The position numbers were made by a program, and so were the translations under genes. The notes below the pieces were generated by a model. That model was not told where the DNA came from, did no database searches, and saw only the letters and a program-made list of their open reading frames with translations. DNA of 64,000 nucleotides from the NCBI GenBank assembly GCA_002269645.1, contig NIVC01001131.1:62001-126000 (forward strand). The letters run 5' to 3'. Source of the stretch: Macrostomum lignano. Lineage: Eukaryota. Shown here one piece after another: positions 13,932 through 61,802 of the stretch (position 1 is the first letter of the stretch; the number at the start of each line of letters is the position of its first letter).

Positions 13932-14863
13932 AATCTTGGGAAGATGAGGCATTAGAGTTTAGACAGCCAAGTTCCATAGCTGAAAATATCCCAACCATCT
14001 AACCAGAATGCCAAGCCTACTGACTGAAATTTGCAAGCAGACGGCACTTCAAATTCAAGGAGTCTCTTTACTGCGCACTGATGATTTTATTCCCAATACA
14101 AATTTTAGTCCCAATTCACTTCTGCAACATTTACTGTATCTAAAAAAGCTCAATATAAACGCAGAAAACTTTGAAAAGAAACTCGAGAAAAAAGATTTAG
14201 AAATATTTTCCCCGCTATTCGAGATGAGCACATGTTCGCCCATGGCATGCGGACCTTAGAGCCGGCTAATCTGGCAATTTAGCCAACCCCAAATATCTTG
14301 TCAATCACTCGATGCAAGGCAGCACCGAGTATGCATTTTCGTGTTGGATTTTCTATACATAACCAGCTACCCTATAGGCTGATGTTCAGTTATGGAATGG
14401 GCAAAATCGATTTATCAAATGGTGTAATTCCCACCGCCACCCGGGCAGCCAGCAGCTCAAGCCTCATCTCTGTCCACTCTTGGAATTCCGCATGCTTCAT
14501 CCATGTCGATATGAAAAATCCAACAAGCGGATTTTGGGACACAAAAAAGCTAAGAAATTTGCTGTTAAACCCATGAAAATATCAGAAACACTGATTGGGA
14601 ACTGTTGCGTCATAGGGCCTTGGGGCTATGCGATACGCAAATCAAGTTTAGTCTTAGTGACTTTGCTAAGCTTACCAAACTTTGGGAGATAAACGAGGCT
14701 CTCGGAGGGTCAAGTGGAAGTCAAACAGTGGGTTCAGTGTCCGGGATGTGTGGCTTCAATAGAGATATGATCTATGACTGCTGTCTCAGAAAATATCAGT
14801 AACAAATTGATGTTAGTCTGGAGTCTAGTACAGATGTTAATCTGGAGTTTCTGATACGTTATT

Positions 14864-17392
14864 TGGGATCTAGGATCTGGGATCTAGGATCTGGGATCTA
14901 GGATCTGGGATCTAGGATCTGGGATCTAGGATCTGGGATCTAGGATCTGGGATCTAGGATCTGGGATCTAGGATCTGGGATCTAGGATCTGGGATCTAGG
15001 ATCTGGGATCTAGGATCTGGGATCTAGGATCTGGGATCTAGGATCTGGGATCTAGGATCTGGGATCTAGGATCTGGGATCTAGGATCTGGGATCTAGGAT
15101 CTGGGATCTAGGATCTGGGATCTAGGATCTGGGATCTAGGATCTGGGATCTAGGATCTGGGATCTAGGATCTGGGATCTAGGATCTGGGATCTAGGATCT
15201 GGGATCTAGGATCTGGGATCTAGGATCTGGGATCTAGGATCTGGGATCTAGGATCTGGGATCTAGGATCTGGGATCTAGGATCTGGGATCTAGGATCTGG
15301 GATCTAGGATCTGGGATCTAGGATCTGGGATCTAGGATCTGGGATCTAGGATCTGGGATCTAGGATCTGGGATCTAGGATCTGGGATCTAGGATGTGGGA
15401 TCTAGGATCTGGGATCTAGGATCTGGGATCTAGGATCTGGGATCTAGGATCTGGGATCTAGGATCTGGGATCTAGGATCTGGGATCTAGGATCTGGGATC
15501 TAGGATCTGGGATCTAGGATCTGGGATCTAGGATCTGGGATCTAGGATCTGGGATCTAGGATCTGGGATCTAGGATCTGGGATCTAGGATCTGGGATCTA
15601 GGATCTGGGATCTAGGATCTGGGATCTAGGATCTGGGATCTAGGATCTGGGATCTAGGATCTGGGATCTAGGATCTGGGATCTAGGATCTGGGATCTAGG
15701 ATCTGGGATCTAGGATCTGGGATCTAGGATCTGGGATCTAGGATCTGGGATCTAGGATCTGGGATCTAGGATCTGGGATCTAGGATCTGGGATCTAGGAT
15801 CTGGGATCTAGGATGTGGGATCTAGGATGTGGGATCTAGGATCTGGGATCTAGGATCTGGGATCTAGGATCTGGGATCTAGGATCTGGGATCTAGGATCT
15901 GGGATCTAGGATCTGGGATCTAGGATCTGGGATCTAGGATCTGGGATCTAGGATCTGGGATCTAGGATCTGGGATCTAGGATCTGGGATCTAGGATCTGG
16001 GATCTAGGATCTGGGATCTAGGATCTGGGATCTAGGATCTGGGATCTAGGATCTGGGATCTAGGATCTGGGATCTAGGATCTGGGATCTAGGATCTGGGA
16101 TCTAGGATCTGGGATCTAGGATCTGGGATCTAGGATCTGGGATCTAGGATCTGGGATCTAGGATCTGGGATCTAGGATCTGGGATCTAGGATCTGGGATC
16201 TAGGATCTGGGATCTAGGATCTGGGATCTAGGATCTGGGATCTAGGATCTGGGATCTAGGATCTGGGATCTAGGATCTGGGATCTAGGATCTGGGATCTA
16301 GGATCTGGGATCTAGGATCTGGGATCTAGGATCTGGGATCTAGGATCTGGGATCTAGGATCTGGGATCTAGGATCTGGGATCTAGGATCTGGGATCTAGG
16401 ATCTGGGATCTAGGATCTGGGATCTAGGATCTGGGATCTAGGATCTGGGATCTAGGATCTGGGATCTAGGATGTGGGATCTAGGATCTGGGATCTAGGAT
16501 CTGGGATCTAGGATCTGGGATCTAGGATCTGGGATCTAGGATCTGGGATCTAGGATCTGGGATCTAGGATCTGGGATCTAGGATCTGGGATCTAGGATCT
16601 GGGATCTAGGATCTGGGATCTAGGATCTGGGATCTAGGATCTGGGATCTAGGATCTGGGATCTAGGATCTGGGATCTAGGATGTGGGATCTAGGATCTGG
16701 GATCTAGGATCTGGGATCTAGGATCTGGGATCTAGGATCTGGGATCTAGGATCTGGGATCTAGGATCTGGGATCTAGGATCTGGGATCTAGGATCTGGGA
16801 TCTAGGATCTGGGATCTAGGATCTGGGATCTAGGATCTGGGATCTAGGATCTGGGATCTAGGATCTGGGATCTAGGATCTGGGATCTAGGATCTGGGATC
16901 TAGGATCTGGGATCTAGGATCTGGGATCTAGGATCTGGGATCTAGGATCTGGGATCTAGGATCTGGGATCTAGGATCTGGGATCTAGGATCTGGGATCTA
17001 GGATCTGGGATCTAGGATCTGGGATCTAGGATCTGGGATCTAGGATCTGGGATCTAGGATCTGGGATCTAGGATCTGGGATCTAGGATCTGGGATCTAGG
17101 ATCTGGGATCTAGGATCTGGGATCTAGGATCTGGGATCTAGGATCTGGGATCTAGGATCTGGGATCTAGGATCTGGGATCTAGGATCTGGGATCTAGGAT
17201 CTGGGATCTAGGATCTGGGATCTAGGATCTGGGATCTAGGATCTGGGATCTAGGATCTGGGATCTAGGATCTGGGATCTAGGATCTGGGATCTAGGATCT
17301 GGGATCTAGGATCTGGGATCTAGGATCTGGGATCTAGGATCTGGGATCTAGGATCTGGGATCTAGGATCTGGGATCTAGGATCTGGGATCTA
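14864..17392. repeat. 14-bp satellite (GGGATCTAGGATCT)n, about 180 copies
   Basis: Nearly invariant; rare ATGT variants. Confidence 0.98.
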
Positions 17393-17884
17393 AGACTCTT
17401 TCAATGACTACACCAAGTTCCAGACCAGACTACTAATATAGGTTTGCAGTCCATGAACGAGTTACAATGTTACGTGGAATAGAAACTATAGTTAAAGATA
17501 CTCTTAATCTCAGATTCAGACTTAAAAGACTTATTTGCAGGCAAAAACTCAGTTTTAGAAGTACATAAAAATGACGCTCGCAGACGTGCAGCGAAGGCGA
17601 GTTCGAATATTTTGAGAGAAAACCACCTAGGTCAAGAGTGTGTGTTCGTCTACAGCCCAGCTATTCGGTAAATTTGCTGTACAAAATTCGTACCAACTTG
17701 GCTATTGTTTCATATTGGACACAACATACACAGAGCTGAAAACTTGTTTGCATTGGCAATAGTGGCTCAGTGAAGACTGAGCTAGTAGAGAGCACTTAGC
17801 AACTAAATTATAAGTAAAAATGTAGTCTTTGCATAAGAGCTGTTTGCCTATTTCTTGGCTTCCATTCATATTTTGGCTCTGGCT

Positions 17885-42751: not shown

Positions 42752-45543
42752 AGCGTTAGTACTTTCAATAACGATTAAGTACTATTGCTCTAAAAAAAAG
42801 ACAAAATATAATCTTCATACATTAAAAAATATAGTCCATTCAGGGTCTTTCGATATAGCCACTGCCGTTTGTAAAGCAGGCCTCCAGCCACCTCAGAAAG
42901 TCTAGCAGGGCTTTGGTAAGTGTCTCAGGCGAAATCTGGGCCAGATATGAACATGCTTTTTGGTGTCAAAAAATCCATTTTCTATATATTTTCTTACGCT
43001 AAAATCTGGTTGGGATCCAAGTATTAATCACAAAGTTATTCGCGAAACAAGTTATAAAGTTACTTATGGAACACCCTGTATATACTATTGCATAGTAAAA
43101 TATGAGTATGTACATAATGCACAGTTGTCAAAGTGACCATGTTTAGAGGTCACTGATTGGCCAGTTGACAAAGTGACCTGAGGGCAATGGCTTCCCAGTT
43201 GATGAAACGCCAGTTGACGATTTGACTAGGATCAGTCTCTTAGACTCTGGCGAAAGTTTTAGAAAAATGGGAAAATCAGAAGTATTTTACATACCTAAAC
43301 GGCTAAAGTTCAAGAAGTCCGAAAAATTTTATTTAGTTACTAGTACAAAAAATGATACTAAAAATGAAATCACTTACCTTTAGTCTTAGATTCAAAGTCA
43401 ATAAGAACATCTTTCTTATTTCGAAAACTTCTATTTAATTGTGGGTTTATTTGTTGCAACATTCTTGAATTTTTATTTAACTTTTAAGATCCAGTTTCTA
43501 TAAAAAGATTAGGCCCACCCAGGCCAAGACAAAACCTAACAATAGCAAGCCAAGCAAAGGAAACAAATTCTTAATAACTTTGTGTTAAATAGGCCAAAAT
43601 AGAAGACAGTGTCTGGCCTAGAACTGTTTGATTGTCCTTGGCCTGGACTTATTCCTTTCAGATGCCTGTGGCTGTAGTAGGCCCTACTTACTTTACTACT
43701 TAGTGAGATAGTGACTGACTAGAGTTAGAAACAAAAACTGCAACAACTGTTGTTTTTTAGACCGCCTAGTTTAAAGGTCCAAAAAATAAGGCGAGGCCTA
43801 GCTATAAAATTTGCTAAAGCCTGACACTCGCGATACAGAAAGATGCTCACATACGTAGATCAAGGCTGAAGCAATACTAAAGTGGAATTCTGTGAGCCGT
43901 GTGCAGACCGGAAAACTCATTTTCTTAGAAATCGTATAGAACCTATTTAGTACAGTTTAACAAATTAATAAAACAAACTACGTAACATTCTTTGAACAAA
44001 GAACGTAAAACTGTTTTTTACAAAAAAGTAAAAAAATTAAACAATTAGGGCACGCTAGCTTTAAAATACAGTACTTGAATCGTTCAGTCAGTCATCAGGG
44101 TGCTTGAATGCATAGTTAGTTGCATGGTCCGATCCTAGTTTTTTATGTTTTTCTAAGTTGCTCTGGTCATTAGTAACAATTTTTATTTTCAGTTAGAACA
44201 TGTAAGTAAATACGCAGCTCTCAGAATGATCAGAATGATATTGTTACGGTATATAAAAGTTACACGTGTGTATAGCCACAAGTGTCTATATAATTAATAA
44301 TGCATGGAACCGTACGGTACACTGCATGTACATGTTCACTCTGCCGCGGAATATAGCTAAGTTGCGCCACTTGCACAGACTGAGAGAGTTTTGAGTTGCA
44401 CTCGCAATGTGGCGACCATATACGAAATTCTCCGTGATGGCGAATTTTCAATGTCATTCTGAGTATATGGTACGTTCTCCAGCTAGGTTTACGAGCATAT
44501 GGTACATACTGCTAGATTATTAGACTTCTCATGAGAGACACAGCAAAATATTTAAATAAATGAATTTGCTCAATTTTGCTGAGGGAAGGCTACCCCTCAG
44601 AATTAAGGGTATAATTTTCTTTCAAGGGGGGGGGGGGGGGGGACACACCCCTAGAGAAAAAAGACTTCAAAAAAAACTTTTTTGGCCGGGGGTACACATC
44701 TCCCGATCCCCCTCCCTATACATGTACGCCTGCACTGATTGTGCTTTCGGATTAAATATCGAGTGGAAACCGCGCTATATTTCTCAGATTCAATTCAGCT
44801 TGCAGCAGGTACTTTTACTACTTGTGTGGGATGATATACATGTACATGTATACTGTATAAAAAAACCATTTTGCCGTCTTCTAAATTAGTAGGCCAGCAG
44901 TAGAATTGTTGTAGTGTCATTTTTGCTAAACATCTGCAGTGAAATTCGGCGTACGATCGTTATCCAATAAGTACTTTTATTATATTTGCATTGACAAAAT
45001 TAATATAACTACTGCATGGCCGCGTCTGCACAGAAGACGAATTTTTCTAGATAATACGCTTGTTAAGCGTGTATAAATATGTATACATGTATATATAGTA
45101 CATGTATACAGATGCACATGTATACGCCGCAAGATTACCTGGGTACGCGTAACTCCCGATTTTTTCTTTTATTTGCCTAAGGCCCTGAGCCAAACACAAT
45201 AATTACATACTCGTATTATGAGGATCAAAGACTGACACAGCAGATGATCCTATATCACGCATTTTAAGCACAAAATATTTTACGCATTTTTACGCATTGT
45301 GTTCGGTGAACTCGATCTCAATCGTAGTAATGTTAAATTACATAATAATTTGTGCTATTTTAAAGTGGAGAACTTCAAGTAGGAAGCTTTCGATTATTTT
45401 GAAATTTCGTGTACAATTAAGGATCTGTTGTAGCTATGTGCGAACTTTGATATTCTGTATGGGGTGAGTCAATTATAATTGTGAGTAAGTTTATCAAACC
45501 AGATCAGTTCAGTTATCAAAAATATTTTCAGTTCAAAGATATA

Positions 45544-46845
45544 ACTACTATGGACGCATTTTTCCGTCGATTTTGGAGGTGGGGTGGGTGTCAACCCTCC
45601 TCGCCTCTCATTGGCTGGCGCCCCGATCACTAGGTGATCGATACCCGTATCGATATCGGCGCTCGGCGCGCGCGCGCCGCAGGCGCATGGCGCCAAGCGC
45701 CGACCAGCCGCAGGCGCACCCTCCCGATATGTACCCCGATATGTATGCCCTCCCTCCAGAGCAGCAGGCGCCCATGCCGCAGGCGCCCCGATGTACACTC
45801 TCCCCAGTACACTCTCCCCAGTACACTCTCCCGATATGTACGATATGTAGTCAATGATATTAGGCTAGTGAAAACTACTTATAGTAGGTGAAATTGTGTA
45901 TATTTACATAAAAAAAGTAGGCAAAACATATTGGTAGGTGTAAAAAATGGTGCATAATGCAAAATAAAATGTACATATTGGTGCATATGAGCAGCAAAAA
46001 ACACACAATGTAGGTGCAAATTATTGATATATTGGCAGACGGTAAAGCAGACATGATAGCAGGTACATATCGCATTATTAGTGTAGTAGGCGCTAATAAA
46101 ACATAGGCGGAAATACACACAGTATAATGCAGGTGCATACATACACACAATGTAGGTGCAAATTGAGTATAATACAGGAAAATTACATAGCATATAATGT
46201 AGGCGCATTTTAAACGATACATTTTGCATATTAACCCGCAGGCACAAAGTATATATCGGTCATAGGCTAAAATACACACACTGCAAATTGAGTATAATGC
46301 AGGAAAATTGTGACATATACAACATATGTATGCAAAATTAAGCATATAATGTAGGTGCAAAGTAACCACCGGCCTCTAGTAATGAGACACGCCCCCAGAG
46401 CCAGGGCCGGGGGATCCTAGCGGAGTACAGTTCAGGTAGGAGCGTTCCTAGTCTGCAACCCATAGCTTCCAAATAGGGTACGAGGGGCCAATGTTTCGAG
46501 AGGGGATCCTCAGTACAGTGCGGGCAGAGAGAAATTCCAATTCCTCCCCAAGCCCCAAATAAGGTTTTTTCAAGGGGATCCCAAGTACAGTGCGCTCCCG
46601 GGTGTCAAATGATGAAGGAATCCCGCCCCCCAATGCACAGTGCGCTCCCGGGTGTCAAATGATGCCCCAATGTACAGTGGAGGTAGAGTAACAGACCGCA
46701 TACAAAGAGAATTCCAGTCAAACTTTACCGCAGCTCCCACCCCAAATGAGGGTTTTAGTGGATCCCCAGAGGGTAGCTCTCCAAGTTGAGGGATCCCCCC
46801 AGTGTGTTGCGAGGCCCAAGTACAGTGCAGGCAGAGAGTAACAGA
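45544..46845 (+). repeat. Left terminal inverted repeat (~1.3 kb)
   Basis: Colinear reverse complement of 52940-54366 with indels, e.g. GTCAACCCTCCTCGCCTCTCATTGGCTGGCGC and GGCCCAAGTACAGTGCAGGCAGAGAGTAA. Confidence 0.9.
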
Positions 46846-47047
46846 GTACAAAGAGAAATTCCCTTATCAGTCAAACTCGAGCGCGATCTTCAGCCAGGGC
46901 AGTCTCCTCCTCATCAGCGCTCTCGAAACATCTGTCAAAGTAAAACATATTCAATGTAGACAGATTATATGTAATTTATATACGATTTATATGAAATTAA
47001 GCTTACCAAAAATCGGGTTCGCGCTGTACGGATGCGGCACGCCTCAA

Positions 47048-47545
47048 TTAGCAACCCTCGTCAAACAGATTTCCCCAAGGGTAGGGTTTGATGCTGTCAA
47101 GGCAGTCCTGCAGATTGTCCTCTGTCTTGACTCGCTTGGCTGGAGGGGGTGCCTCAGGTGCCGGCTTGAAGAGCTTGTCCAAACGGGCGGCAAACATCCT
47201 GCGCCACAGTTCAGGCGTGAATTCGATCGTGTAGCGCCAATTAAACTTTGGGTCCTGATTGAGCCAATTGCGCAGCAAACGGATCCTCCCTCGCGAAGCT
47301 TCAACTGCCTTGAAATTGCCCAACAGGACCCGCTTGTTCACGCGAAGGCGGGCAGCAGCCTCCAGGTCAGGGCGCGCAGCTTCGAGCTTCTTCCACTCTG
47401 GCTCGGCCAAGTAGATTGCAGGGAAGCCGTCCTTCCACACTCCAGCCTCGTTGGTGTAGAGACGCCGAATTTCAATCAAGTTGTGTTCAGTTTCAAATGT
47501 GGGCTTCCGCGCCACAAAGTTTTCGTATAGAGAGATAGAAGACAT
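47048..47545 (-). CDS. 165-aa protein with two PC4-like repeats (putative ssDNA-binding protein) and an NLS-like PPAKRVK
   Basis: IEIRRLYTNEAGVWKDGFPAIYLAEPEWKKL resembles the PC4 consensus vDIRe.y....G..kPg.kGIsL..eqW..L; second weaker repeat IRLLRNW...YTIEFTPELWRRM; TATA-like box about 45 bp upstream. Confidence 0.65.
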   Translation of the reverse strand: MSSISLYENFVARKPTFETEHNLIEIRRLYTNEAGVWKDGFPAIYLAEPEWKKLEAARPDLEAAARLRVNKRVLLGNFKAVEASRGRIRLLRNWLNQDPKFNWRYTIEFTPELWRRMFAARLDKLFKPAPEAPPPAKRVKTEDNLQDCLDSIKPYPWGNLFDEGC

Positions 47546-47787
47546 GATTTAGCAGCAGCAGCAGAGAGCTCTCTGACAGCCGTGCAGCGCCTTATATACC
47601 CCCGGATGGAGGGTGGGGTGGGTGATGATTTTGGGGGTGATTTGTGATGATTTTGGTTGGTTTTTGGCGATTGACCAATAACAGGCGAGCTGAGCAGATT
47701 TTTTAGTATATATACAGACCCCCAGAGCCAGGGTAGAGATATAATCCTTCTCTCTCCGCTCGCTCTCTCACGCTCTCTGTTTGCAAA
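47546..47787. promoter_or_regulatory. Bidirectional Pol II-type promoter of the element
   Basis: Minus-strand TATATAAGG (plus strand CCTTATATA near 47590) before the PC4-like ATG; CCAAT near 47676; TATATATA near 47706; GATATAAT near 47738 before the pPolB ATG at 47788. Confidence 0.55.
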
Positions 47788-50700
47788 ATGGCTAAACGCA
47801 GCGCCACCGCAACTGCTTTCCTGGCTGACAAGAGGCAACGTCTTTATGGTAAGTTTTAATTAATTTCTGTCTAGACTGTAGTTGCTAGGGTGGGGGTAGG
47901 GGCTGAGCAGCAGCAGCAGCTGCAGGGTCTGTGGGACCGCAGAGTAAACAACAAAGACTGGGACTGCTGCGACAGCTGCGGGGGTCTAGACTGGAGTTGC
48001 TAGGGTGGGGTGCTGCGGCAGGGTCTGTAACAGAGAGTTGCAGGGGAGGGCTAGACAAGTTTCAGCCGGGTTAGCAGCAGCAGCAGCTGCAGGGTCTGTG
48101 GGACAGCAGAGTAAACAAAGACTGGGGCCTCGGGTGGGGTGTTGTCTAGACAGGGAGGGGTGTGCGGCAGCTGATAAGAAATTGCTGCAAAAACAGACAG
48201 AGAGTTGCTAGGGTGCTGCGGCAGAGTACTGATAAGAAATTGGCGTGGTCTGTAACAGATAATCGTTGGGGAGGGCTAGACAAGTTTCAGCCGGGTGGGG
48301 GGCAGAGAGTTGCTGGGACTGTGTAGCGCGGGGGCATACTGATAAGAAATTGGCAGGGGCTGTCTAGACAGGCTGCAGCTAGGCGCAGATAAGAAATTGC
48401 TGCAAAAAACAGAGAGTTGCTGTGGGAGGGGTGCTGCAGAGTAAACAACAAAGACTGGGACTGCTGCGACAGAGGGTTGCCGGGGCCGGGAAAATGACAG
48501 ATTCTTCTGGTTTTTTTTATCTCCTTGTGTTTTTTCAGACGCGTTTGTCCCGCCAACACAGCCGGAATCTGTTACCGGACCGGGTGAGTTATCCAGCCCC
48601 ATTCCCCAGACAGACCCGGGCTGACTCACACTCCCCCATTCCCCCATGCAGGTTTTACGGCCCGGCTGGATAATCAGCGCGACCTGCCCAAGTTTAGGGC
48701 AAAGGGTGTCGAGTATGTGGTGCGTATTACCAACACCGAAGATTTGCGGGAGGTGTTTGCTGACATGCTCGAAGTCTTTAAGCAGGATTTGGCTGGTGAT
48801 GACTTTATGGCCGCGAAATTCGAGAGCGACAATATGCTCAAAGCAGCCCACACTCCCCCGGTGCGTGCAGCCCGCATGACGGCTGAATTGTTGTTTAAGC
48901 ACATTGACAAGATTGTGCAGTCAGACGCAAGCGTACTGTCGAGCAACTTTTCTATCCGGTTGCTAAAGGCCTGGGTGCCTCGAGGTGGATGTGCTCTCGA
49001 GAACAAGCATCTAGAAGAGAGGCACGCTTTTTCAAAGCACTATGTCCGCATCACCAACACGGACAAGAGATGCCTGCTGCGAGCGCTTGTTGTCGCATGC
49101 GCCTATCTGCAATTTGTGGCCAAGCGCATCACCGAGGATGTGTGGCGCACGATCAAGGCCAATTCGTCCAAGCAGACTAAGCTGGTGGCTGAGCTACAAA
49201 TCGAAGCGGGTCTCTACACGGTAAGTTTCTAGTATTTTTCTGATAAGAATTTTTACACAGTATCGTGGAATACAAAAATTTTCTGATAAGAATTTTTACG
49301 CAGTATCATGGAATACTAAAAGAATTTTACATAGTATCAGGGAATACTAAAAGAAATATTTTACCCCCACACAGACTCTTCAAACCGTCTCGCAGGCCGG
49401 TCCTTTCGGGGTGGATGCACTGCCCGAAGCGATCCGTGCCCTGAACCGGCTGCATCCAGGGCACGATTTTGGTGTACGCGTGTACCAGGCAGAGGAGGCC
49501 AACAGGTGCATCTTCAACCTGCCTGGCACCGAGATTCTGCACCTGCACCTGGTCGAGCAGCACTTTAATGTGGTCACCAAGCTGCCTGCGTTTTTCGGCA
49601 GCCACCACTACTGCGACAAGTGCGAGATGGCCTATGATAGCGACCCCGCCAAGCACAAGTGCGCTGATGCCTGCAGTACATGCAAGACTCCGGGCTCCAA
49701 CTGCAAGACCAACCGCGCATATGTAAGATGCCATGATTGCGGGCTAAATTGCTATAATGCTCAGTGCCTAGAAAATCACAAGCGCAAGAATAAGGCGGGC
49801 AGATCTCGCTGTGATTCGGTCCACGTTTGCGGCACGTGTGGCTATCTAGAAGAACTAAAAGTAGGCCAGCCCCCTGAGCATCAGTGTGGTTACGCCAAGT
49901 GTCCAGTCTGCAAGCAGTACGACGAAACTGCCACCCACGAGTGCTTTGTCACCCCGCCCAAAGCCAAAGAGTCTAGCGCCCCGTATGTTTACTATGATTT
50001 CGAGACGTACTTGGACTCTGGCAAGCAGCACCGGGTACACTTGGTTACGGCTGCCACCTCCTGCGAGGCGTGTCCCAAACTCTTCCCCAGGCCCCGCTGC
50101 AGCGCGTGCGGGGGACTACACAGCTCAGCCAATCGCATTGCGGGACGCGATTTGGCACTCGATTTCACGAGCTGTGTCTCGCACAATGACTGTGCCTGTG
50201 GGATGCGAGAGTTTGTTTCGGTTGGGCCGCACTCTATCGATGCCTTTTACTGCTGGCTGACTAGTGTGTTCAAGCAGGGGGCAATTGCTATTGCGCACAA
50301 TGGCTCTGCGTATGACGCATTCCTCCTGCTCGGCGCCCTACTCAACGGACTGGCCAAGAAGAAGCCGCAAGTGATCTTCCAGAACAGCCGCCTAATGTAC
50401 ATGAAGTGCGACAAGATCACCTTCAAGGACAGCCTCAATTTCATCCCTATTGGTCTGGCGCAATTCCCAAAGGCGCTTGGTTTGGGCACCCAACTGACCA
50501 AAGGAGATTTCCCGCACGTGTTTAACCAGCCGGAAAACTGGGGGTACGTGGGACCCTACTGTTCAATTGATATGTATGGAGGAAAGAAAAACAAGCAGCA
50601 TGACTCCATCGCAGACTGGCTGGCCAAGCAGGAGGGACAGGTGTTTAATTTCAATAAGGAGTACCTGGACTACTGCCTGCAGGACACGTTAATTTTGCGG

Positions 50701-52773
50701 GAAGGCTGTCTAAAGTACACCCACCTGATTAAGGACATTTGCGGACTGGACGCATTTGTTCAATCCAACACCATTGCGGGCTTGGCTATGGCTGTTTTCA
50801 CCACCAAGTTTATGGAGCCCAACACTCTTGGGGTGATTTCCCGCCGGTCCGATGTACAGTCGCACAAGGCGCGGTGCTGGCTTGCGCATTTGAATGCAAC
50901 CGAGTTTGGCGGCCGGTTGCGGACAGCGGACTCGGGCGGCGAGGCTTTCGCCATGGGCCGTAAGGTCGACGGCTTCGACCCAGAGACCAGGACAGTGCTG
51001 CAGTTTCATGGCTGCTTCTACCATGGCTGTCCCAAGTGCTTCCCCAACGGCGACGTGCTGCACCCGCTCAAGAACCAGCCAATGCGGGCGATTTATGAGG
51101 AGACTGAGCGCTTCACCCGGTTGCTCTCCACTGCCTACAATGTGCGTGTTCTGTGGGAGCACGACTATCAGGACGAGGGAGCGCCAGTCCAGCAGCCTAT
51201 ACGCCTGGAGGAAGCCCTGTTTGGCGGCCGTACCGAGGCTTTTGTCCCGCACGCCGAGGCCACCGAGACTGTTGAGCTGCGCTATCGGGATGTGGTAAGT
51301 TTGTACACTTGTACACACAGTTGACATGCGTTTGAGTTTATCTTATCCTCTAATTCTCTATTATCCTTATACTTATCCCCTAGGTGTCGCTCTACCCGAC
51401 TGTCAACAAGTTTGACAAGTACCCTGTCGGGCACCCGGTTCACCACCCCGAGCCTCATCTACTGGATGAGCAGCAGCTGGCCCGGTATTTTGGCATCGCC
51501 GAGGTGTCGATTCTGCCGCCAACCAATCTCCACATCCCGCTACTGCCCGCCAAGATTAACAAGAAGCTGGTTTTCGGCCTCTGCCGCGTCTGCATGGAGA
51601 CCCAGTGCAGCAGCGAGTGTACACACACTGACGCTGAGAGAATGCTCCGCGGCACGTGGTCGACCCCAGAGCTCCACAAAGCCCTGCAGTTGGGTTACAA
51701 GCTGCAGTCAGTTCATGCCCTGGCCTATTGGACCGAGACTCGCACGGGCCTGTTTGCAGATTATGTAAACACTTTTTTGAAGCTCAAAGCCGAGTCTAGC
51801 GGTTCGCCGGGGATGACTGAGGACGCCAAGGCTGCCTACATGGCCAGCTTTTTCGAGCGCGAAGGCGTCCGGCTGGAAAAGGTGGAAGAAAATCCCGGCC
51901 TGCGCTTTGTTGCCAAGATTTTTCTAAACTCGTAAGTTTTTCTACTTGCAGTGGGGGACCGCGTTTTTCTACTTACAGAAGCCAGATATACAAAAATTTA
52001 TTTTTCCCTGCAGGCTCTGGGGCAAATTCTGCCAGCGCGACGACCTGACCTCCACAGAGATTGTGGACAGCTACGAGGCGTGGCTGCAGCGCCTGACAGA
52101 CCCCTCGATCAAGGTCAAGTCGTGCGAGCCAATTGGGGAGAGCTTCATGATGCTCGAGTACAAGCCCCGATTTGGCGGTGCTGGCGAGCGGGCGTTCAAG
52201 TACGCTAATGTACCTATTGGCGTTTTCACCACCTCCCACGCCCGGCTGCGACTCTACGAGGCTCTGGAGGGTCTAGGAACCCGCGTCATTTACGCCGATA
52301 CCGATTCGTAAGTAATTTTTTCACTGTCTCTGTCTCTCTTTCTCCCCTTAACACTTTTTTATCCTTCTCCTCCTCCCAGGGTCGTATACCGCTGCTCCCC
52401 GGGCGAGTACGAGCCTCCGGGCGGTTCGAGTTTGGGGCAGTGGACTGACGAGGTACCTGCTGGCTGCCGCATGGTACAGTTCACCACGGGAGGCCCCAAG
52501 CTCTACCGGTACGTGGTGGAGAAGCTCGACAGGTCGCTGTACTCGGTACTCAAGTGCAAGGGCATCAGAGTCACGCCCGAGATTTCCGAGCGCGAGGACG
52601 AGCTGCAGGAAATTCTGCGCCACGGCGGGACTGTACGGCTGCCCCAGGCCCAGTTCAGGCGCGACAAGGCCAGCTGTACAATTCGGACCCTGGAGATGGA
52701 TAAGACATTCCAACGTGTAATGACTAAGCGAGTGTATGGGGCCGCTAGCCGCCCGTATGGCTTTCGTGAGTGA
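47788..52773 (+). CDS. Protein-primed family-B DNA polymerase (Polinton type), 1269 aa. Exons 47788-47848, 48539-48583, 48652-49220, 49396-51294, 51384-51931, 52014-52307, 52380-52773
   Basis: Six GT-AG introns with matching phases (1,1,0,0,2,2); spliced length 3810 nt with no internal stop seen. ExoI YDFET, ExoII AHNGSAYD, ExoIII YCLQD, motif A YRDV|VSLYP, motif B KIFLNS|LWGKF, motif C YADTDS|VVY, GPKLY, KCKGI. N-terminal vOTU-like region and Cys-rich Zn-binding cluster; VSR-like insert KVDGF...FHGCFYHGC. Confidence 0.93.
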
Positions 52774-52939
52774 GTGAAAGATAAGGATCTGTCTTTTTAC
52801 GCCTCTCTGCCTGGGATTCCCCTAAACTCACCCCAACTGTGCATTCTGGCGGGGATCATTTGACACCTCCCCGTACATTGGACGGGATCCCTTCAAGTGT
52901 TAAAACTCCCATTTGACACCTATTCCCTCGGGGCGGTCT

Positions 52940-54366
52940 CTATTACTCTCTGCCTGCACTGTACTTGGGCCTCGCAACACACGGGGGGATCCCTCAACTT
53001 GGAGAGCTACCCTCTGGGGATCCACTAAAACCCTCATTTGGGGTGGGAGCTGCGGTAAAGTTTGACTGGAATTCTCTTGGTATGCGGTCTGTTACTCTAC
53101 CTCCACTGTACATTGGGGCATCATTTGACACCCGGGAGCGCACTGTGCATTGGGGGGCGGGATTCCTTCCTCATTTAACACCCCGGAGCGCACTGTACTT
53201 GGGATCCGCTAAAACCCCTATTTGTATGCGGTCTGTTATTCTGCCCGCCCTGTGCAATGTGAGGGGTCCTTGATAACCCCCATTTGGGGAGGATTGGAAT
53301 GCTCTCTGCCTGAACTGTACTTGGGATCCCCATGAAAAAACCTTATTTGGGGCTTGGGGAGGAATTTCTCTATGTTACTCCTCTCTGGCCGCACTGTACT
53401 TGGGATCCCCCGGCCCTGGCTCTGGGGGCGTGTCTGTTTACTAGGGAGCCGGTTGCTTGTATTTTACACCTACATTATATGCTTAATTTTGCATATATAT
53501 GTTGTATATGTCACAATTTTCCTGCATTATACTCAATTTTCAGTGTGTGTATTTTAGCCTATGCACTGAAATTTGTACCTGCGGGTTATTAAGCAAAAAT
53601 GTATTGTTTAAAATGCGCCTACATTATATGCTATGTAATTTTAGTGTATTATACTCAATTTGCACCTACAGTGTGTGTATTTTAGCCTATGCACCTACAT
53701 AATTGGAATCTAGAGTGTGTGCAATATACTGTGTGTATTTCCACCTATGTAGCGCCTACAGTACCTGCTTTGTCTATTTCTGTCAATATATTGATGCGCC
53801 TACATTGTGTGTATTTTGCTGCTCATATGCTCCAATATGTACATTTTAATATGCAATATGCGTCATTATTCACACCTACCAATATGTTTTATCTACTTTT
53901 TATGTAAATATACGCAATTTCATCTACTATAAGTAGTTTTCACTAGCCTAATATCGCTGACTAGATATCTGTGTATGCATACATATCGGGAGAGTGTACT
54001 GGGGAGAGTGTACACCCGTACTGGGGAGAGTGTACACTCAGGGTGCTTGCGGCATGGGAGAGTGTGCACTCGGGGTGCCTGCGGCATGGGGCGCCTGCAG
54101 CATGGGCGCCTGCTGCTCTGGAGGAAGGGTGCGCCTGCGGCATACATATCGGGAGGGAGGGCATACATGTCGGTACATATCGGGAGGGTGGGCATACATA
54201 TCGGGGTACATATCGGGAGGGTGCGCCTGCGGCATGGGCGCCTAATTGGCGCCTGATTGGCGCTTGGCGCCACGCGCCTGCGGCGCGCGCGCCAGCCAAT
54301 GAGAGGCGAGGAGGGTTGACACCCACCTCACCTCCAAAAACCCCGGATTCGGGTGTCCTTAGTAGT
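52940..54366 (-). repeat. Right terminal inverted repeat (~1.4 kb)
   Basis: Reverse complement of the left TIR. Confidence 0.9.
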
Positions 54367-55293
54367 GATATATACCTGGGCAGCTACAGTGCTGCGGTGT
54401 CGCGCAGGGAGACCCGGTGGTGCCGGTGTCCGCAGCGCCGTCCCCTCTTGAGAGTCCAGAAGGTGGATGGTCGCTCACCCGCTGTAGCCCTGAGGTAGTG
54501 TAGACGAGTTGGCTGAATTTTCGGGACTGAAGACGTCGTAATTGCGTCGGGTTTGAGCCGACTTAGATGAGCCTGTCCTGAGTAAAAACGGGTGTTTTTT
54601 TACCGCTGAGTAAAAAAGAGGGCCGATGTCGGGCAAAACAGCAAAGAAACGACGATGTCCCTGCGTTTGAGTCCAAGCAGAGCTCTATGGAAGTCCGGGG
54701 GGATGAACGGGAACAGCCTCGCGGGAAATTTCCGGCAGTCGGGGGGTGTTAGCACAGATACTTACAAGAGAGCGATGCTCTATTTGCGATATCGATCCAT
54801 CAGTCCATCCATCTTTCATTTAAATATCGTGCCAAGGACGACTTAAGTGGAAGGACGGGAAACCTCGTTTCTTAGGCACTTTTTCCCGAAAAAATACACT
54901 GCGGAGATAGGAAGTTTTCATTTTTTCAGCATAAAAATTCCTATAACTTTTGATAGGAGGCAGATCCAGTGTTCATCTTTTGATATGTTGTGCTTTTTTA
55001 TTGCTCTATCGATATTTATAAAGCTTTCCGTTCAGAAAATTAGGATTCTATGTCAATTTTTTTTCTACTTCTCCTTCTACTTAAGTCGTTCTTGTATCGT
55101 GCGTCTACGCCTATTTCTGATCTATTTCTGTCAAAAATGCCCATGTCTATGACCAAACCTACACGCCGCTCTTTCAGGCCAAAGTATTTCGATTTTCAGA
55201 TACACACTTTGATTGCAAGATTAAGCACTGGGAAGTTCAACGGACATTGAAAAAATTCATCACGCTGGTTGGATGAGACTGTTGAGTCTTCGC

Positions 55294-56899: not shown

Positions 56900-57264
56900 G
56901 TAATGAATTGGATTCATTTATACTAATTTTGTCAAGAATTTTAGCCGAACTGTAACCTATAACTTCCAGGTTGAAACCCAATAGGGGAAGTATCCTTAGC
57001 CAACAGAAGCACAAAAAATGAATAGGACTCCTGGTCCCACACCCTGGCTTTTGTAGACCATGTCTACTGCAGAAGTAAGATTGAGGCTCCGGAAGAGCCA
57101 GTCGCTTCTATATATTTATATTTAGCGAGCACCGTACGCAAGCAACAAAAACCCTCGAGGGTCTCTCATACATGTACGCAAACCGAAAGGGGAAAAGGAA
57201 AGCAAGGAAGGAACAGCAAGCAAGCAATGGGTGACGCATCGCGATAATGAACATTCCTACCCCA

Positions 57265-60200
57265 TGTCGTATCGCGTGACTCAGCGGGTGTACATTGAGT
57301 TCACTCGCTGTTTTATTGTATCGATTGACTGACAATGCTTCATTGAGCGTGACTAGTGTGTGCGTTCTTTTAAAACCCTTGTGCTTTTATGCATCAATCA
57401 TTCTTACGTTCGCTTGTACCAAAAATATAAAAGTCGTCTAGTGAGCTCAGAGCTCAATACTTTTTGATTTCTCGCACTAACCACTATAGAGATGTTTTAG
57501 TGGCGACGAGGAATGTGGCTGAGCAATGCCTAACCACGCAATCGGAGAATATGAGGACTCCGAGGAAACCTGGAATGAGTACCAGGAGCGTCTGGAGCAA
57601 CATTTCCTGGCACAGGACATCACCGACGAAAGTAAAAAGAGGGCCACCCTGCTGAGCGTCTGCGGTAGGAAAACCTTTCAGTTGGCCAGAAGCCTCTGCT
57701 CTCCAGCCAAAGTCGCGGACAAATCCTATGCCGAAATATGCGAGCTGCTGAGCGCTCATTTCAACCCAAGGCCGAGTGAGATCATTCAGAGGTTCCACTT
57801 CAATAACCGAGTTCAGCGCCCTGGAGAGTCGGTGGCAGAGTTCCTTGCGGAGCTGCGGAAGCTGGCGGAGTTCTGCAATTACGGCGGCAGCCTGTCTGAC
57901 AGGCTGCGCGACAGGCTGGTGTGCGGCATCGCGGACCAGCAAATCCAGCGCCGGCTCCTGATGGAGGCCGAGCTGACCCTCGATACTGCCAAACAGATCG
58001 CGCAAGCGGGCGAGTCAGCAGCCAAAAACTGTCAATCGCTGGGCTCAGCAAAACCTGCGGCAACGACATCAGCATCGTCAGCGACAGAGAGCGACTCCGT
58101 GCTTCGAATGGAACGACAGCGACCGCAAGACAGCCGTCAGTCTGGAATAGAAGGCCGGTGGCGCTGTTTCCGCTGCTTGTCGACTCGCCATCCGGCAGCC
58201 AAATGTCCCTTCGCGGACAAACGCTGTTTCAACTGCAGCAAAACCGGACAAACCGCGAAGGCATGCAAGGCGGTGACACAGCAGCAGCAAATGCACCAGC
58301 TGGTTGACCAGCAGCCTTCACACAGCAGCTCAGCTCAGGCCGCCGAGCCGCCCAGCCCAGCCGAGGTCGCTTATCCCTTCTACCATCTGGGTGCTGACCG
58401 ATCGCAGGCCAGGTTTCCTCCAATCGTGACCTCTGTCTTCATCGAGGAGAAGCGATTCGAGATGGAGGTGGACACGGGGGCATCCGTATCGCTGATGTCC
58501 GAACGTACGTTCAAGGAAAACCTGGGAAGCCGGATGTCTCTGTCTGCGTCAACGGTTCAGCTCAGTACGTACACCGGTCAAACCGTCCGTGTCCTCGGTC
58601 AGCTCTTCGTAAGCGTGCGAGCTTCGCAAGGTTCGGCCGAGGAACAGCTGCCGCTGCTGGTTGTTGCCGGTTGTGGTCCGAGCCTCCTTGGTCGAGACTG
58701 GCTACACCGCCTGCGGCTGGACTGGCAATCTATCAAGCGGATGGAAGAAGCTGATGCAGCCAAGGAGTTGCTACAGGAGTTCTCAGAAGTCTCCCAAGGT
58801 CTGGGCGAGTTCAGCGGCAAGCCGGTGTCCATCAGTCTGAAGGAGAACGCCAGACCAAGGTTCTGTAAGGCGCGGCCGGTGCCGTTTGCGCTGCGCGAGA
58901 AGGTTGAGCAGCAGCTGCAGAAGGAAATCGACCAAGGAATCCTGGTGCCGGTCAAAAATTCCGACTGGGCGTCCCCGATCGTGCCGGTAATGAAGTCCGA
59001 CGGCAGCGTGCGCATCTGCGCTGATTTCAAGCAGTCGGTCAACGCAGCTATCCGGCCTGAGGCTTACCCGCTGCCGAACATCGATGAGCTGTTTTCACGC
59101 TTAGCTGGTGGTAAGAAGTTTTCAAAACTGGATCTGAGCCAGGCATTTTCGCAGCTTCCCCTGGATGAGGATGCTCAAGAGCTCTGTACCATCAACACCT
59201 CGCTGGGACTTCTTTGCTACACCCGTCTGCCTTTCGGCGTGTCGATCGCAACCAGCGTGTTTCAGCGGGTGATGGACAGCTTACTGCGAGGAATTTCGCA
59301 CTCTGCATCCTTCATCGATGATGTCATCATCACAGGCGAAGACGACGCCAGTCACCTCCGCAACCTGAGAGCAGTTCTGAAGGTCTTCAAGGAGTCCGGG
59401 CTGACCTGCAAGCTTGAGAAGTGCACCTTTTTTAAGGACGAAGTCACATACCTAGGCCACCGCATCGACGCCGAAGGGCTGCACCCGCTGGACGATAAGG
59501 TCTGAGCTGTGCTGGACGCGCCTGCACCGACTAACACGACTCAACTGAGGAGCTTCTTGGGCCTTATCAACTACTACGTCAAGTTTTTGCCAAATCTCTC
59601 TAGTGTTTTGGCCCCGCTGCACAGGCTGTTGGAGAAGAACTCAAGGTGGCAGTGGGATCGCAGCGAGGCGGACGCGTTCAGCGCGGCAAAGCAGCTGCTC
59701 ACGCACCCCAGCGTCCTAGTCCACTATAACGCTGCAGAAGAGCTCTACCTGGAGTGCGACGCATCGCAGTACGGGCTCGGTGCCGTCATATTCCACCGTC
59801 GGGACGGCATAGACAAGCCGATCGCGTACGCTTCGCGCAGCCTCAGCTCAGCAGAGAAAAAATACTGCCAGCTGGAGAAGGAGGCCTTGGCGCTAGTTTT
59901 CGGTGTGAAAAAATTCCATCACTATCTGTTTGGTCGGGAGTTCAACCTGTTGACCGACCACCGGCCGCTTCTCGGCCTTCTAGGACAAGAGCGACCGCTT
60001 CCAGCCGTGGCTTCCGGCCGAGTCCAACGATGGGCGTTGCTGCTGACCGCGTACCGGTACCGTCTTGTACACCGCAGCGGGGTCTCCATGCTCCGAGCAG
60101 ACGCCTTAAGCCGCCTTCCTGCATCAGCGGGCCCTAAGGAAGTTCCGGTGCCTCCAGAAGTCGTGCAATTAATGGACTGCCTGGACGCCGGGCCGGTGAC

Positions 60201-61802
60201 TTCATCAGACGTGCGCACCTGGTCCCGCCGCGACCCTACATTGTCACGCGTAATTCTTTACTGTCTCTCGGCCTGGCCAGACCGAGATTCCTGGACTTCT
60301 GATTTGGTGCCCTTTAGGAAACGGCACCAGGAATTGTCAGTTCAAGACGGCTGCGTTCTCTGGGGCAGTCGTGTCGTCATTCCTGAAGTCGGCCAAAGCC
60401 GCTTGCTCGACTGCCTGCATGTTGGACACCTGGAGCATCCCGGATGAAGTCGCTTGCCAGAAGTTACATATGGTGGCCGGGCATGGATCGTGACATTGAG
60501 GCCAAGGCAGCAAGCTGCACGGACTGCCAGAAGCACCAGCAAGCCGGACCAGAAGCTCCGCTGCAGCCATGGCCGCTAACGGCAAGGCCTTGGAGAATCC
60601 ACGTCGATTTTGCCGGTCCCGTCCAAGGTCGGATGCTGCTGGTGGTTGTCGACTCCTTCTCAAAGTGGCTCGATGTGTACGTAACGACAGCGATGACGAC
60701 CTTCGCAACAGTTGAAAAGCTGCGACAGAGCTTCAGCACTCATGGCCTACCGGAGACCATCGTCTCGGACAATGGGCCAAGCTTTGCCAGCTTCGAGTTC
60801 GACGCCTTTTGTGCCAAGAACGGAATTCGGCACATCCGCACGCCTCCCTACCACCCGGCTTCCAATGGCCAAGCTGAGCGAGCAGTGCAAACTGTTACGA
60901 ACTCCCTGAAGAAGCAGGCCAACGACGGCAGCTCCCTGGAGACCCAGCTGGCCAGATTCCTGCTCAGCTACCGTACTACACCGCATCCAACGACGGGAGT
61001 GGCACCGTGTGAGCTGCTGATGCACCGGACGCTGCGCAGCCTGCTCGACGTACCGAGGCCAGACATCGCCAAGCGAGTTCTCGAGAGCCAGGAAAAGCAG
61101 AAGCAGCAGCACGACTCGGGCGCGCAAAGACGAGTCTTCGAGGAGGGCGAGGCGGTGTTCGTTCAAGACTTTAGCCGCGGGAACGAGCGAACCTGGACAT
61201 CGACTATGGTGGTCGGCAAGGAGGGCAGCAACTGGTACAAGTGCATTCTGCCGAACAACCGGATGGTGCGGCGGCACACAGAACAGATGCGAATCGACAA
61301 GACTTCCCAGCGGTCTGGGCCGCTGCAGACGAATCCGGAATCCAACGGTGAGCTCAGGCCTCCACTACCGCAACCGTTGGTTCCGCCGCCACCGCCGCTG
61401 CAGCTGCCGCCGCCACCGCCACCGTCGCCGCCGCCGCCGCCGCCAACGCCGCCGCCACCGTCGCAGCCTCGACCGCTGCAACTTCCAGATCAAGGACCAG
61501 CACAGCTCTCAGAAGATCAAGCAGAGCTCGATCGATTCCCGTCCGCCTAAACTACGATGGGAGAGGTGTCGTATCGCGTGACTCAGCGGGTGTACATTGA
61601 GTACACTCGATGTTTTATTTTATCAATTGACTGAAAATGCCTCATTGAGCGTGAATAGTGTGTGCGTTCTTTTAAAACCCTTGTGCTTTTTATGCCTCAA
61701 TTATTCTTACGTTCGCTTGTACCAAAAATATAAAAGTCGTCTAGTGAGCTCAGAGCTCAATACTTTTTGATTTCTCGCACTAACCACTATAGAGTTGTTT
61801 TA
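57265..61802 (+). mobile_element. Ty3/gypsy (Mag-like) LTR retrotransposon, full length
   Basis: LTRs 57265-57499 and 61567-61802; 5-bp TSD CCCCA at 57260-57264 and 61803-61807; PBS TGGCGACGAGGA at 57501, complementary to the 3' end of tRNA-Ser(GCU); PPT GATGGGAGAGG before the 3' LTR. Confidence 0.95.
57526..61550 (+). pseudogene. gag-pol polyprotein (Gag with CCHC knuckles, PR VDTGA, RT, RNase H, IN) with one in-frame TGA (59503-59505) and one frameshift near 60430
   Basis: CFRC...H...C and CFNC..TGQ...C; MEVDTGASVS; WASPIVPV, FSKLDLSQAF, RLPFG, FIDD; CDASQYGLG, TDHRPL; H...WWPGM...C..C, HVDFAGP, SDNGP, ERAV. Confidence 0.9.

Follow-up and report, generated by a model that had tools for sequence, protein, structure and literature searches.

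Polintons, or Mavericks (adintoviruses, eupolintoviruses), are defined by a polymerase and an integrase that occur together, and genome surveys filter on this pair, requiring the two genes within 4–40 kb (PMC8097293). Their core genes are reported there to be intronless (PMC8097293, 10.1101/2022.07.12.499685), and their ends are of the (AGT)2, (AG)3 or (AC)3A type (PMC8097293). In Pieris butterflies, mobile Polintons with inverted repeats, integrase and capsid but no polB occur beside very similar complete elements (10.1101/2025.02.07.637071). Bidnaviruses, regarded as segmented descendants of Polintons (PMC4061559), and the Drosophila Vesanto virus carry a Polinton-derived protein-primed DNA polymerase (pPolB) on one segment and have matching segment ends (PMC4061559, PMC8502044, PMC8363768). 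Here we analyse a 64,000-nt stretch of the Macrostomum lignano genome (contig NIVC01001131.1, positions 62,001 to 126,000; hereafter the window), in which a pPolB gene split by six introns lies on an integrated element. We propose that this element, the replication piece R1, is one half of a bipartite Polinton and that it and a separately integrating structural piece (S) complement each other. Judging from the sequences compared, we put the probability of this reading at about 0.75.

The features of R1 are as follows, in window coordinates; the exons and introns of the polymerase gene are given further below.

45538-45543, no strand: left 6-bp target-site duplication GATATA, read from the sequence
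45544-54366, no strand: whole R1 element, 8,823 bp, ACTACT...AGTAGT, delimited by inverted repeats and duplication
45544-46846, no strand: left terminal inverted repeat, about 1.3 kb, internally repetitive, 74% identical to the right arm (gapped), inner blocks up to 98%
45544-45574, plus strand (also 54336-54366): terminal 31 nt, fixed ACTACTA followed by variable blocks at nt 8-27; likely origin and integrase end
46932-47006, minus strand: 75-nt GT-AG intron past the stop codon of the PC4-like gene; joint found in runs X1 and X6
47048-47545, minus strand: PC4-like gene, 165 aa, weak profile match
47546-47787, no strand: 242-bp spacer between the divergent genes, with TATA-like words on both strands; candidate promoter region by sequence
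52938-54366, no strand: right terminal inverted repeat (repeats of about 1.3-1.4 kb), from self-alignment
54367-54372, no strand: right 6-bp target-site duplication GATATA

The polymerase and the PC4-like gene are the only open reading frames (ORFs) of R1. The 6-bp duplication implies an integrase, though R1 encodes none. With the integrase of the partner element as query, no match is found in the window or in 36/36 polymerase loci, and neither integrase nor capsid is matched in the window or in 35 of the 36 loci. The single match is a distant flanking capsid gene: at that locus (L045), the R1 copy adjoins or sits within the capsid gene of a distant Polinton, outside the element itself.

A genome search with exon 5 of the polymerase gave 127 rows, corresponding, once second pieces and short and distant matches were removed, to at least 56 places of R1 and at least 40 places of a second family, R2. 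Genome searches score the best candidates only (for the capsid, the best 98 of 448), and all such counts are lower bounds. Among the 22 R1 loci examined, 11 have both ends in the fetched stretch. These copies are 8.7–9.1 kb long, and all 11 have perfect, mutually different 6-bp duplications. The two full R2 copies measure 9.5 and 9.7 kb, and perfect 6-bp duplications flank 3/3 two-ended R2 copies. The initial annotation had taken the gene to belong to a mobile lineage with host-style introns; the 11 differing duplications and the age of the introns (see below) bear this out. It had missed that integrase and capsid are encoded elsewhere, by a second element whose ends match.

A search with the R1 end sequence leads to elements on contigs without a polymerase match. 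One of them (G000:C976:136034-146601) is a 10.6-kb structural element with all genes on one strand. The gene order is a Fic-domain gene, several ORFs including a TBP-like one, integrase, likely minor capsid, small basic protein, major capsid, protease and ATPase. The integrase clears the Pfam rve cut-off and has a weak chromodomain match. The model of the major capsid protein (predicted local distance difference test, pLDDT, 77) matches the PBCV-1 Vp54, Sputnik (E ~1e-17) and mavirus capsids, and the protein is, as modelled, a double jelly-roll. The ATPase and protease are named by likeness to complete elements and by motifs recognized by eye, and for the minor capsid the name comes from no more than its position and a weak likeness. 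The S capsid, protease and ATPase were left unnamed by sequence searches of Pfam, PHROGs and PDB. A genome search with Pfam Pox_A32 came back empty, which is a false negative, as ATPases are present in S-type elements and in complete Polintons. The 15 S-piece ORFs scanned include no helicase and no parvovirus family. The core genes are continuous ORFs, with 0–2 GTRAGT words per element (three checked).

There are two structural families, S1 with at least 27 capsid places and S2 with at least 35 (85 of 101 rows kept, split matches merged, 16 distant hits omitted). The S2 capsid and integrase are 87% and 80% identical to those of S1. Three environmental capsids from ENA/Logan (P0040, P0041, P0042) are 79–81% identical to the S capsid, and scans of viral contigs with this capsid gave no relative. 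Three further ORFs of the structural piece are covered by loci L073:2888-3703, L073:3719-4111 and L071:1238-2041. A 272-aa ORF has a weak Atlas likeness to Argonaute N/PAZ (0.86, a lead only), the TBP-like ORF has a Pfam E of 4e-4, under the cut-off, and the Fic-domain gene occurs in lineage 1 only. These are possibly counter-silencing or transcription genes.

The polymerase and the structural genes are not found together. None of the 12 fetched S elements contains polymerase exons. Among the matches listed, no polymerase exon 5 lies within 25 kb of any of 62 capsid loci (the nearest is 48 kb away), and no capsid lies within 25 kb of any of 96 polymerase loci. Genome-wide, 17 of 21 S1 end-pairs are 10.2–10.7 kb apart and 18 of 26 S2 end-pairs 9.5–11 kb apart. 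A perfect 6-bp duplication flanks 10 of 12 two-ended S elements (6/7 S1, 4/5 S2). The longest S end-pairs span 18.4 and 14.3 kb. The 18.4-kb pair (C56) was rejected as a complete ancestor, having no polymerase or structural marker gene, and so was C106, an AGTAGT-type Polinton nested in another repeat. The 14-kb size of one S1 copy is due to an intact THAP/P-element transposase ORF of 981 codons (L072:2756-5701).

R1 alone has the polymerase, inverted repeats and 6-bp duplication of a Polinton, and lacks integrase, capsid, protease and ATPase. It has six introns, ACTACT ends and a length of 8.8 kb, as against intronless genes, AG-type ends and about 17 kb. By itself the window element is not a Polinton, but it would work like half of one: R and S together carry the full core set of polymerase, integrase, major and minor capsid, ATPase and protease.

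The ends of R and S match within each lineage. R1 ends start with ACTACTA in 33/33 cases and S1 ends in 12/14, and R2 and S2 ends start with ACTACGT or ACTACAT (16/16 and 10/10). Over the first 27 nt, the mean identity is 0.59 for R1–S1 and 0.68 for R2–S2, and 0.40–0.44 between lineages; the ends have 2 and 1 identical 24-mers within lineages and none across. A 31-nt frame ending in TTTT is common to all ends, and inward of it the repeats are piece-specific. Positions 8–27 are hypervariable (mean difference 0.44 in R1, 0.45 in S1) and positions 32–51 near-fixed (0.05 and 0.00); R2 is variable in both (0.39 and 0.33). The end variants are short blocks in many combinations, with 99 of 120 column pairs failing the four-gamete test in lineage 1. 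In the first variable block, all 5 S1 alleles are present in R1, and 0–1 are common across lineages. From the blocks common to R and S of one lineage, we infer that end sequence passes between the two pieces, which would be expected with a single polymerase copying them both. The mosaic of nt 8–27 might stem from exchange between ends, help to evade small-RNA silencing, or act as a partner code. A 12-nt end pattern is too short to serve as an element counter (228 matches, 216 for the reversed control).

Nine gene-less elements also have R- or S-type ends. Six of them, from both lineages, are near-perfect palindromes of 8.7–9.6 kb (L133, L134, L135, L136, L075, L076), and 5 of the 6 have a perfect 6-bp duplication. 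With 214 ends counted for the R1-type repeat and 151 for R2, such palindromes would seem to be common. They are likely satellites, possibly an assembly artefact. Polymerase pieces, structural pieces and palindromes are all about 9–11 kb, which would point to a packaging limit.

The initial annotation divided the polymerase gene into seven exons by six canonical GT-AG introns, and this structure holds: each exon is stop-free in the phase it inherits, and retaining any of the 6 introns results in an in-frame stop. The exons sum to 1277 codons, or 1276 aa, in the main form. The length given earlier, 1269 aa, fits a second form that uses an in-frame acceptor 21 nt later (49396), and contigs of run X5 use both acceptors. 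All parts of the gene lie on the plus strand.

47788-47848, plus strand: exon 1 (ATG); reading frame, spliced contigs, other copies
47849-48538, plus strand: intron 1, 690 nt, phase 1; spliced contigs, other copies
48539-48583, plus strand: exon 2; reading frame, spliced contigs, other copies
48584-48651, plus strand: intron 2, 68 nt, phase 1; spliced contigs, other copies
48652-49220, plus strand: exon 3, with the presumed terminal-protein region and the vOTU protease Cys motif
49221-49374, plus strand: intron 3, 154 nt, phase 0; second in-frame acceptor at 49395/49396
49375-51294, plus strand: exon 4, vOTU His motif, Cys-rich region, what we take to be Exo I-III, VSR-like insert, and what we take to be the start of polymerase motif A
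51295-51383, plus strand: intron 4, 89 nt, phase 0, within polymerase motif A (DV|VSLYP)
51384-51931, plus strand: exon 5, PF03175 E 2e-13
51932-52013, plus strand: intron 5, 82 nt, phase 2, within motif B, in the Ser codon of NSLWGK
52014-52307, plus strand: exon 6, last residues YADTD
52308-52379, plus strand: intron 6, 72 nt, phase 2, in the Ser codon following motif C (DTD)
52380-52773, plus strand: exon 7 including the stop codon; reading frame

The domain label of exon 3 is taken from PMC11161782 and rests on motif position, not fold; the VSR label of the exon 4 insert is given by likeness to PMC10748475. Pfam PF03175 is above the cut-off on exon 4 (E 3e-15) as well as on exon 5. The closest UniRef proteins are up to 98% identical and labelled Macrostomum lignano, and the remaining relatives are at most 39% identical, with the exception of one 185-aa fragment at 59% (exon 4; P0134, ENA/Logan). 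A polymerase alignment search returned 7 distant loci. Exons 4–7 align back to back along single-chain relatives, and likewise along the unbroken polymerase chain of a complete metagenomic Polinton (L119). On one such relative, P0016, exon 5 stops at 1080, exon 6 covers 1082–1176 and exon 7 begins at 1178.

Contigs from sequencing runs support the predicted junctions. In runs X1, X5 and X6, which come from three studies and whose RNA nature is an automated guess ("likely RNA"), intron 1 is skipped in 2/3 runs and introns 2–5 in 3/3. Intron 6 is skipped within one X5 contig, but is absent from the listed joints. For run X16, of unknown kind, none of the polymerase splice joints is listed. The spliced contigs do not tell which polymerase copy is transcribed. 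Introns 3–6 recur in 35 other copies (20 close ones and 15 at about 70% protein identity, two families) at identical codon positions; 129 of 130 measured junctions are GT..AG and one is GC..AG, and the introns are 60–320 nt long. In each of the 18 copies (of 21 examined) whose exons could be mapped, introns 1 and 2 are GT..AG too, and their lengths modulo 3 fall into all three classes. The acceptor ahead of exon 3 is damaged in one lineage-2 copy. A chance test is weak, as the 7 GTRAGT words in the gene span are equalled by 20 of 2000 shuffles. With GT-AG borders, pyrimidine-rich acceptors and removal from likely-RNA contigs, the polymerase introns are real spliceosomal introns of the U2 type.

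The introns are old because introns 3–6 are common to two families whose synonymous sites are saturated, and both they and the split into R and S are likely older than the divergence of lineages 1 and 2. Three introns fall inside catalytic motifs: introns 4, 5 and 6 sit in polymerase motifs A, B and C, and intron 3 lies outside conserved motifs. Among 8-residue windows compared over 82 relatives, the sites of introns 4, 5 and 6 rank in the top 0.7%, 0.8% and 5.9% by conservation. The chance of 3 of 6 introns falling in catalytic motifs is about 0.004, by a test chosen post hoc. Inteins and group I introns of other B-family polymerases lie within a codon or two of the sites of introns 4–6; a link between the two would be conjectural. 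An introner origin was considered and is unsupported, as the introns bear no clear likeness to one another; the best pair, both AT-rich, reaches z 3.7. Between the two lineages, introns at the same position are not alike in sequence (z −1.3 to 1.7). A distant, broken polymerase relative (G000:C234; L070:5598-7357), 35–45% identical, is without intron 4, and no structural genes occur in the 30 kb examined there.

The introns had been put forward as a novelty that leaves only fragments to ORF-based mining. The first part stands in so far as Polinton core genes are reported intronless, and is qualified by the introners already known in dinoflagellate eupolintoviral elements (PMC12166617). The second part is partly wrong: exon 4 alone clears the Pfam cut-off, and in UniRef 10 of 52 gene models of this host already span introns 4, 5 and 6. 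The usual survey filter on integrase and polymerase within 4–40 kb, as described in PMC8097293, more likely explains the neglect of such elements.

The genes of both pieces are under purifying selection. The proportion of nonsynonymous differences (pN) is far below that of synonymous differences (pS) in 11/11 genes or exons tested (at most 8 open copies of each class, and four against four in comparisons between lineages). Between lineages, pS is 0.64–0.76 for polymerase exons and 0.59–0.82 for S genes, near saturation, and pN is 0.17–0.34 and 0.065–0.13, respectively. Within families, pN is also well under pS in nearly all cases. In polymerase trees, built from single exons by a quick method, R1 and R2 form a clade (support 99–100) among Polinton-type polymerases, far from the polymerases of the complete Polintons of the same genome. 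S1 and S2 form a clade in the capsid, integrase and ATPase trees, and the capsid tree groups them with the three environmental capsids.

The complete Polintons of this genome are 16.8 and 17.5 kb long, start with AGTAGT and encode the polymerase in a single ORF (1125 and 1478 codons); their proteins are 27–43% identical to S proteins. There are at least two families of such intronless AGTAGT-ended elements (G000:C114, C4619, C1680, C297, C106), one with an endonuclease VII domain in the polymerase. A metagenome scan found one complete intronless Polinton, L119, which is about 30–40% identical to R and S.

The small gene of R1 likely encodes a PC4-like single-strand DNA-binding protein, on three weak but concordant signs. 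Its Pfam PC4 match (E=0.18) is under the cut-off, its top Atlas matches are PC4-bearing viral clusters (0.86–0.87, a lead only), and its lineage-2 homologue is 36% identical (E 1e-6) to an ORF of a complete-type Polinton that clears the PC4 cut-off. A single-sequence fold is uninformative (pLDDT 35). Several PC4-like copies (G000:C1753, C1176, C1090) lie on contigs without a polymerase exon-5 match, and an additional piece carrying this gene is conceivable.

If R and S do complement each other, the host spliceosome would produce the polymerase mRNA in the nucleus. The polymerase, aided by the PC4-like protein, would prime at the ACTAC ends common to both pieces and replicate each of them as free linear DNA, in keeping with the protein-primed layout TP-vOTU-Exo-Palm (TP, terminal protein) and the role of repeated end motifs described elsewhere (PMC11161782, PMC8097293). 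The S integrase would insert both pieces, giving the 6-bp duplications, and the terminal 31 nt would be swapped between pieces during co-replication. The S capsid proteins would then package one piece of about 9–11 kb per particle, a step that we slightly favour once complementation is granted, and gene-less palindromes of equal length and ends would ride along as satellites. The fullest form of this scheme is a segmented, integrating double-jelly-roll virus of an animal, with a double-stranded DNA genome. It would have a spliced replicase segment and an intronless integrase–capsid segment, both roughly half as long as the usual genome and each packaged on its own. Each lineage would have its own shared, fast-reshuffled 31-nt end code, exploited by palindromic satellites of the same size. 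We hold this form tentatively, at somewhat less than even odds.

Several points weigh against a bipartite Polinton. Complementation is deduced from sequence comparison. Diversity is greater among R copies than among S copies, with within-family pS in lineage 1 of 0.08–0.24 and 0.013–0.05, respectively. The trees cannot show one ancestor of R and S because no complete Polinton close to both is sampled. A rare complete copy could be missed because the searches score best candidates only and cover 5,269 contigs. Some loci are probably duplicated assembly regions, and two S1 copies have one common duplication. The sequence just inside nt 31 is common to R1 and S2, not S1, so that the pairing may be more tangled. 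Finally, the PC4-like gene is missing in 13 of 14 R2 loci (within L051-L069) and present in one.

The alternative that survives best is a two-part nuclear transposon, in which the pieces complement each other without particles and the capsid genes function at a different step or are remnants of recent date. It overlaps with the bipartite reading and differs in the packaging step only. Maverick particles had not been observed according to PMC8097293, and the replicase introns suggest long nuclear residence. We nevertheless consider it unlikely, because capsid, protease and ATPase are as constrained as the integrase (the low pN and saturated pS above) and because the common size of all three kinds of element is what a packaging limit would give.

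Alternatively, both pieces may be deletion derivatives of a complete helper Polinton, either missing from the assembly or an outside virus, and have no need of each other. The Pieris elements provide a precedent, the genome searches yield lower bounds, and the environmental capsid relatives show that kin of S exist in other public samples. Such derivatives need not keep their genes, yet both pieces are strongly purified. The same split occurs in two lineages with saturated synonymous sites, no co-location is found among the 158 loci listed, and no end-pair of complete size has genes. We regard a helper as improbable. Slightly more improbable still is that ordinary complete Polintons move each piece separately and the matching ends reflect common descent only. 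Complete Polintons with integrase, capsid and polymerase are numerous in the genome, and a 6-bp duplication is reported for intact Polintons too (PMC8097293). However, those with ends that could be read start with AGTAGT, not ACTAC, and their proteins are far from those of S. The variable terminal blocks common to R and S of one lineage point to ongoing exchange, and selection maintains an integrase in S itself. That the gene was domesticated by the host and acquired introns once immobile is very hard to credit: intron gain often accompanies domestication, as raised for algal viral elements (PMC10675990), and the gene is transcribed and spliced, but the 56 and 40 places at least, the many broken copies and, above all, the 11 different insertion sites of two-ended R1 copies largely refute it.

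Compared with described systems, R resembles Polintons in its polymerase with vOTU-like Cys and His motifs, its inverted repeats and its 6-bp duplications. S resembles them in its rve integrase, double jelly-roll capsid, likely minor capsid, adenain-like protease and ATPase, and its gene order from integrase to ATPase is as in L119. Unlike in Polintons, the genes are divided between two elements of 9–11 kb that integrate separately, the polymerase has six spliceosomal introns, and the ends are ACTACT or ACTACG. The yeast linear plasmids pGKL1 and pGKL2 form a two-plasmid dependent system; they are cytoplasmic, each with its own polymerase, and are not known to integrate or to be spliced. They resemble R as capsid-less linear replicons with a TP-vOTU-Exo-Pol polymerase (PMC11161782); unlike such plasmids, R is nuclear, spliced, and integrated at many sites with target duplications, though it may have a free phase as well. 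Bidnaviruses and Vesanto virus share with R and S the division into segments with matching termini, but they have single-stranded DNA, a parvovirus-type capsid, an NS1 helicase and an inactive vOTU (PMC11161782), whereas here the capsid is of the double jelly-roll type, an integrase is encoded, both pieces are integrated, and the vOTU Cys and His motifs are present. The Pieris elements are like S, but there very similar complete elements persist, whereas here none was found and a polymerase-only counterpart exists in two lineages. The dinoflagellate elements also have spliceosomal introns inside Polinton-like elements, but their introners are recent transposon copies (PMC12166617), whereas the introns here are old and fixed.

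In the full-text literature searched, which leaves out Repbase, supplements and most subscription journals, there is no report of this element or of any bipartite Polinton; supplements of Polinton surveys could list such elements. The stable split in two old lineages suggests a segmented Polinton form that current screens discard, and, unlike in bidnaviruses, segmentation here keeps the Polinton capsid and integrase. If this is true, searches that need adjacent polymerase and integrase miss such elements in other genomes too. The system would be a natural case for the origin of multipartite viruses, with the complete Polintons of the same genome as controls. The shared size of about 9–11 kb hints, in a way open to test, that Polintons do form particles. 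As the polymerase gene is expressed in the host, very likely a laboratory flatworm, particle, free-DNA and knock-down tests are feasible.

Elsewhere in the window, positions 57250-61800 hold a long terminal repeat (LTR) retrotransposon, assigned by eye as Gypsy-like; two LTRs are present, pol contains a stop, and the frame changes ahead of the integrase. Positions 14700-17500 hold a long array of a 14-nt unit, and numerous other minisatellites occur across 1–37 kb.

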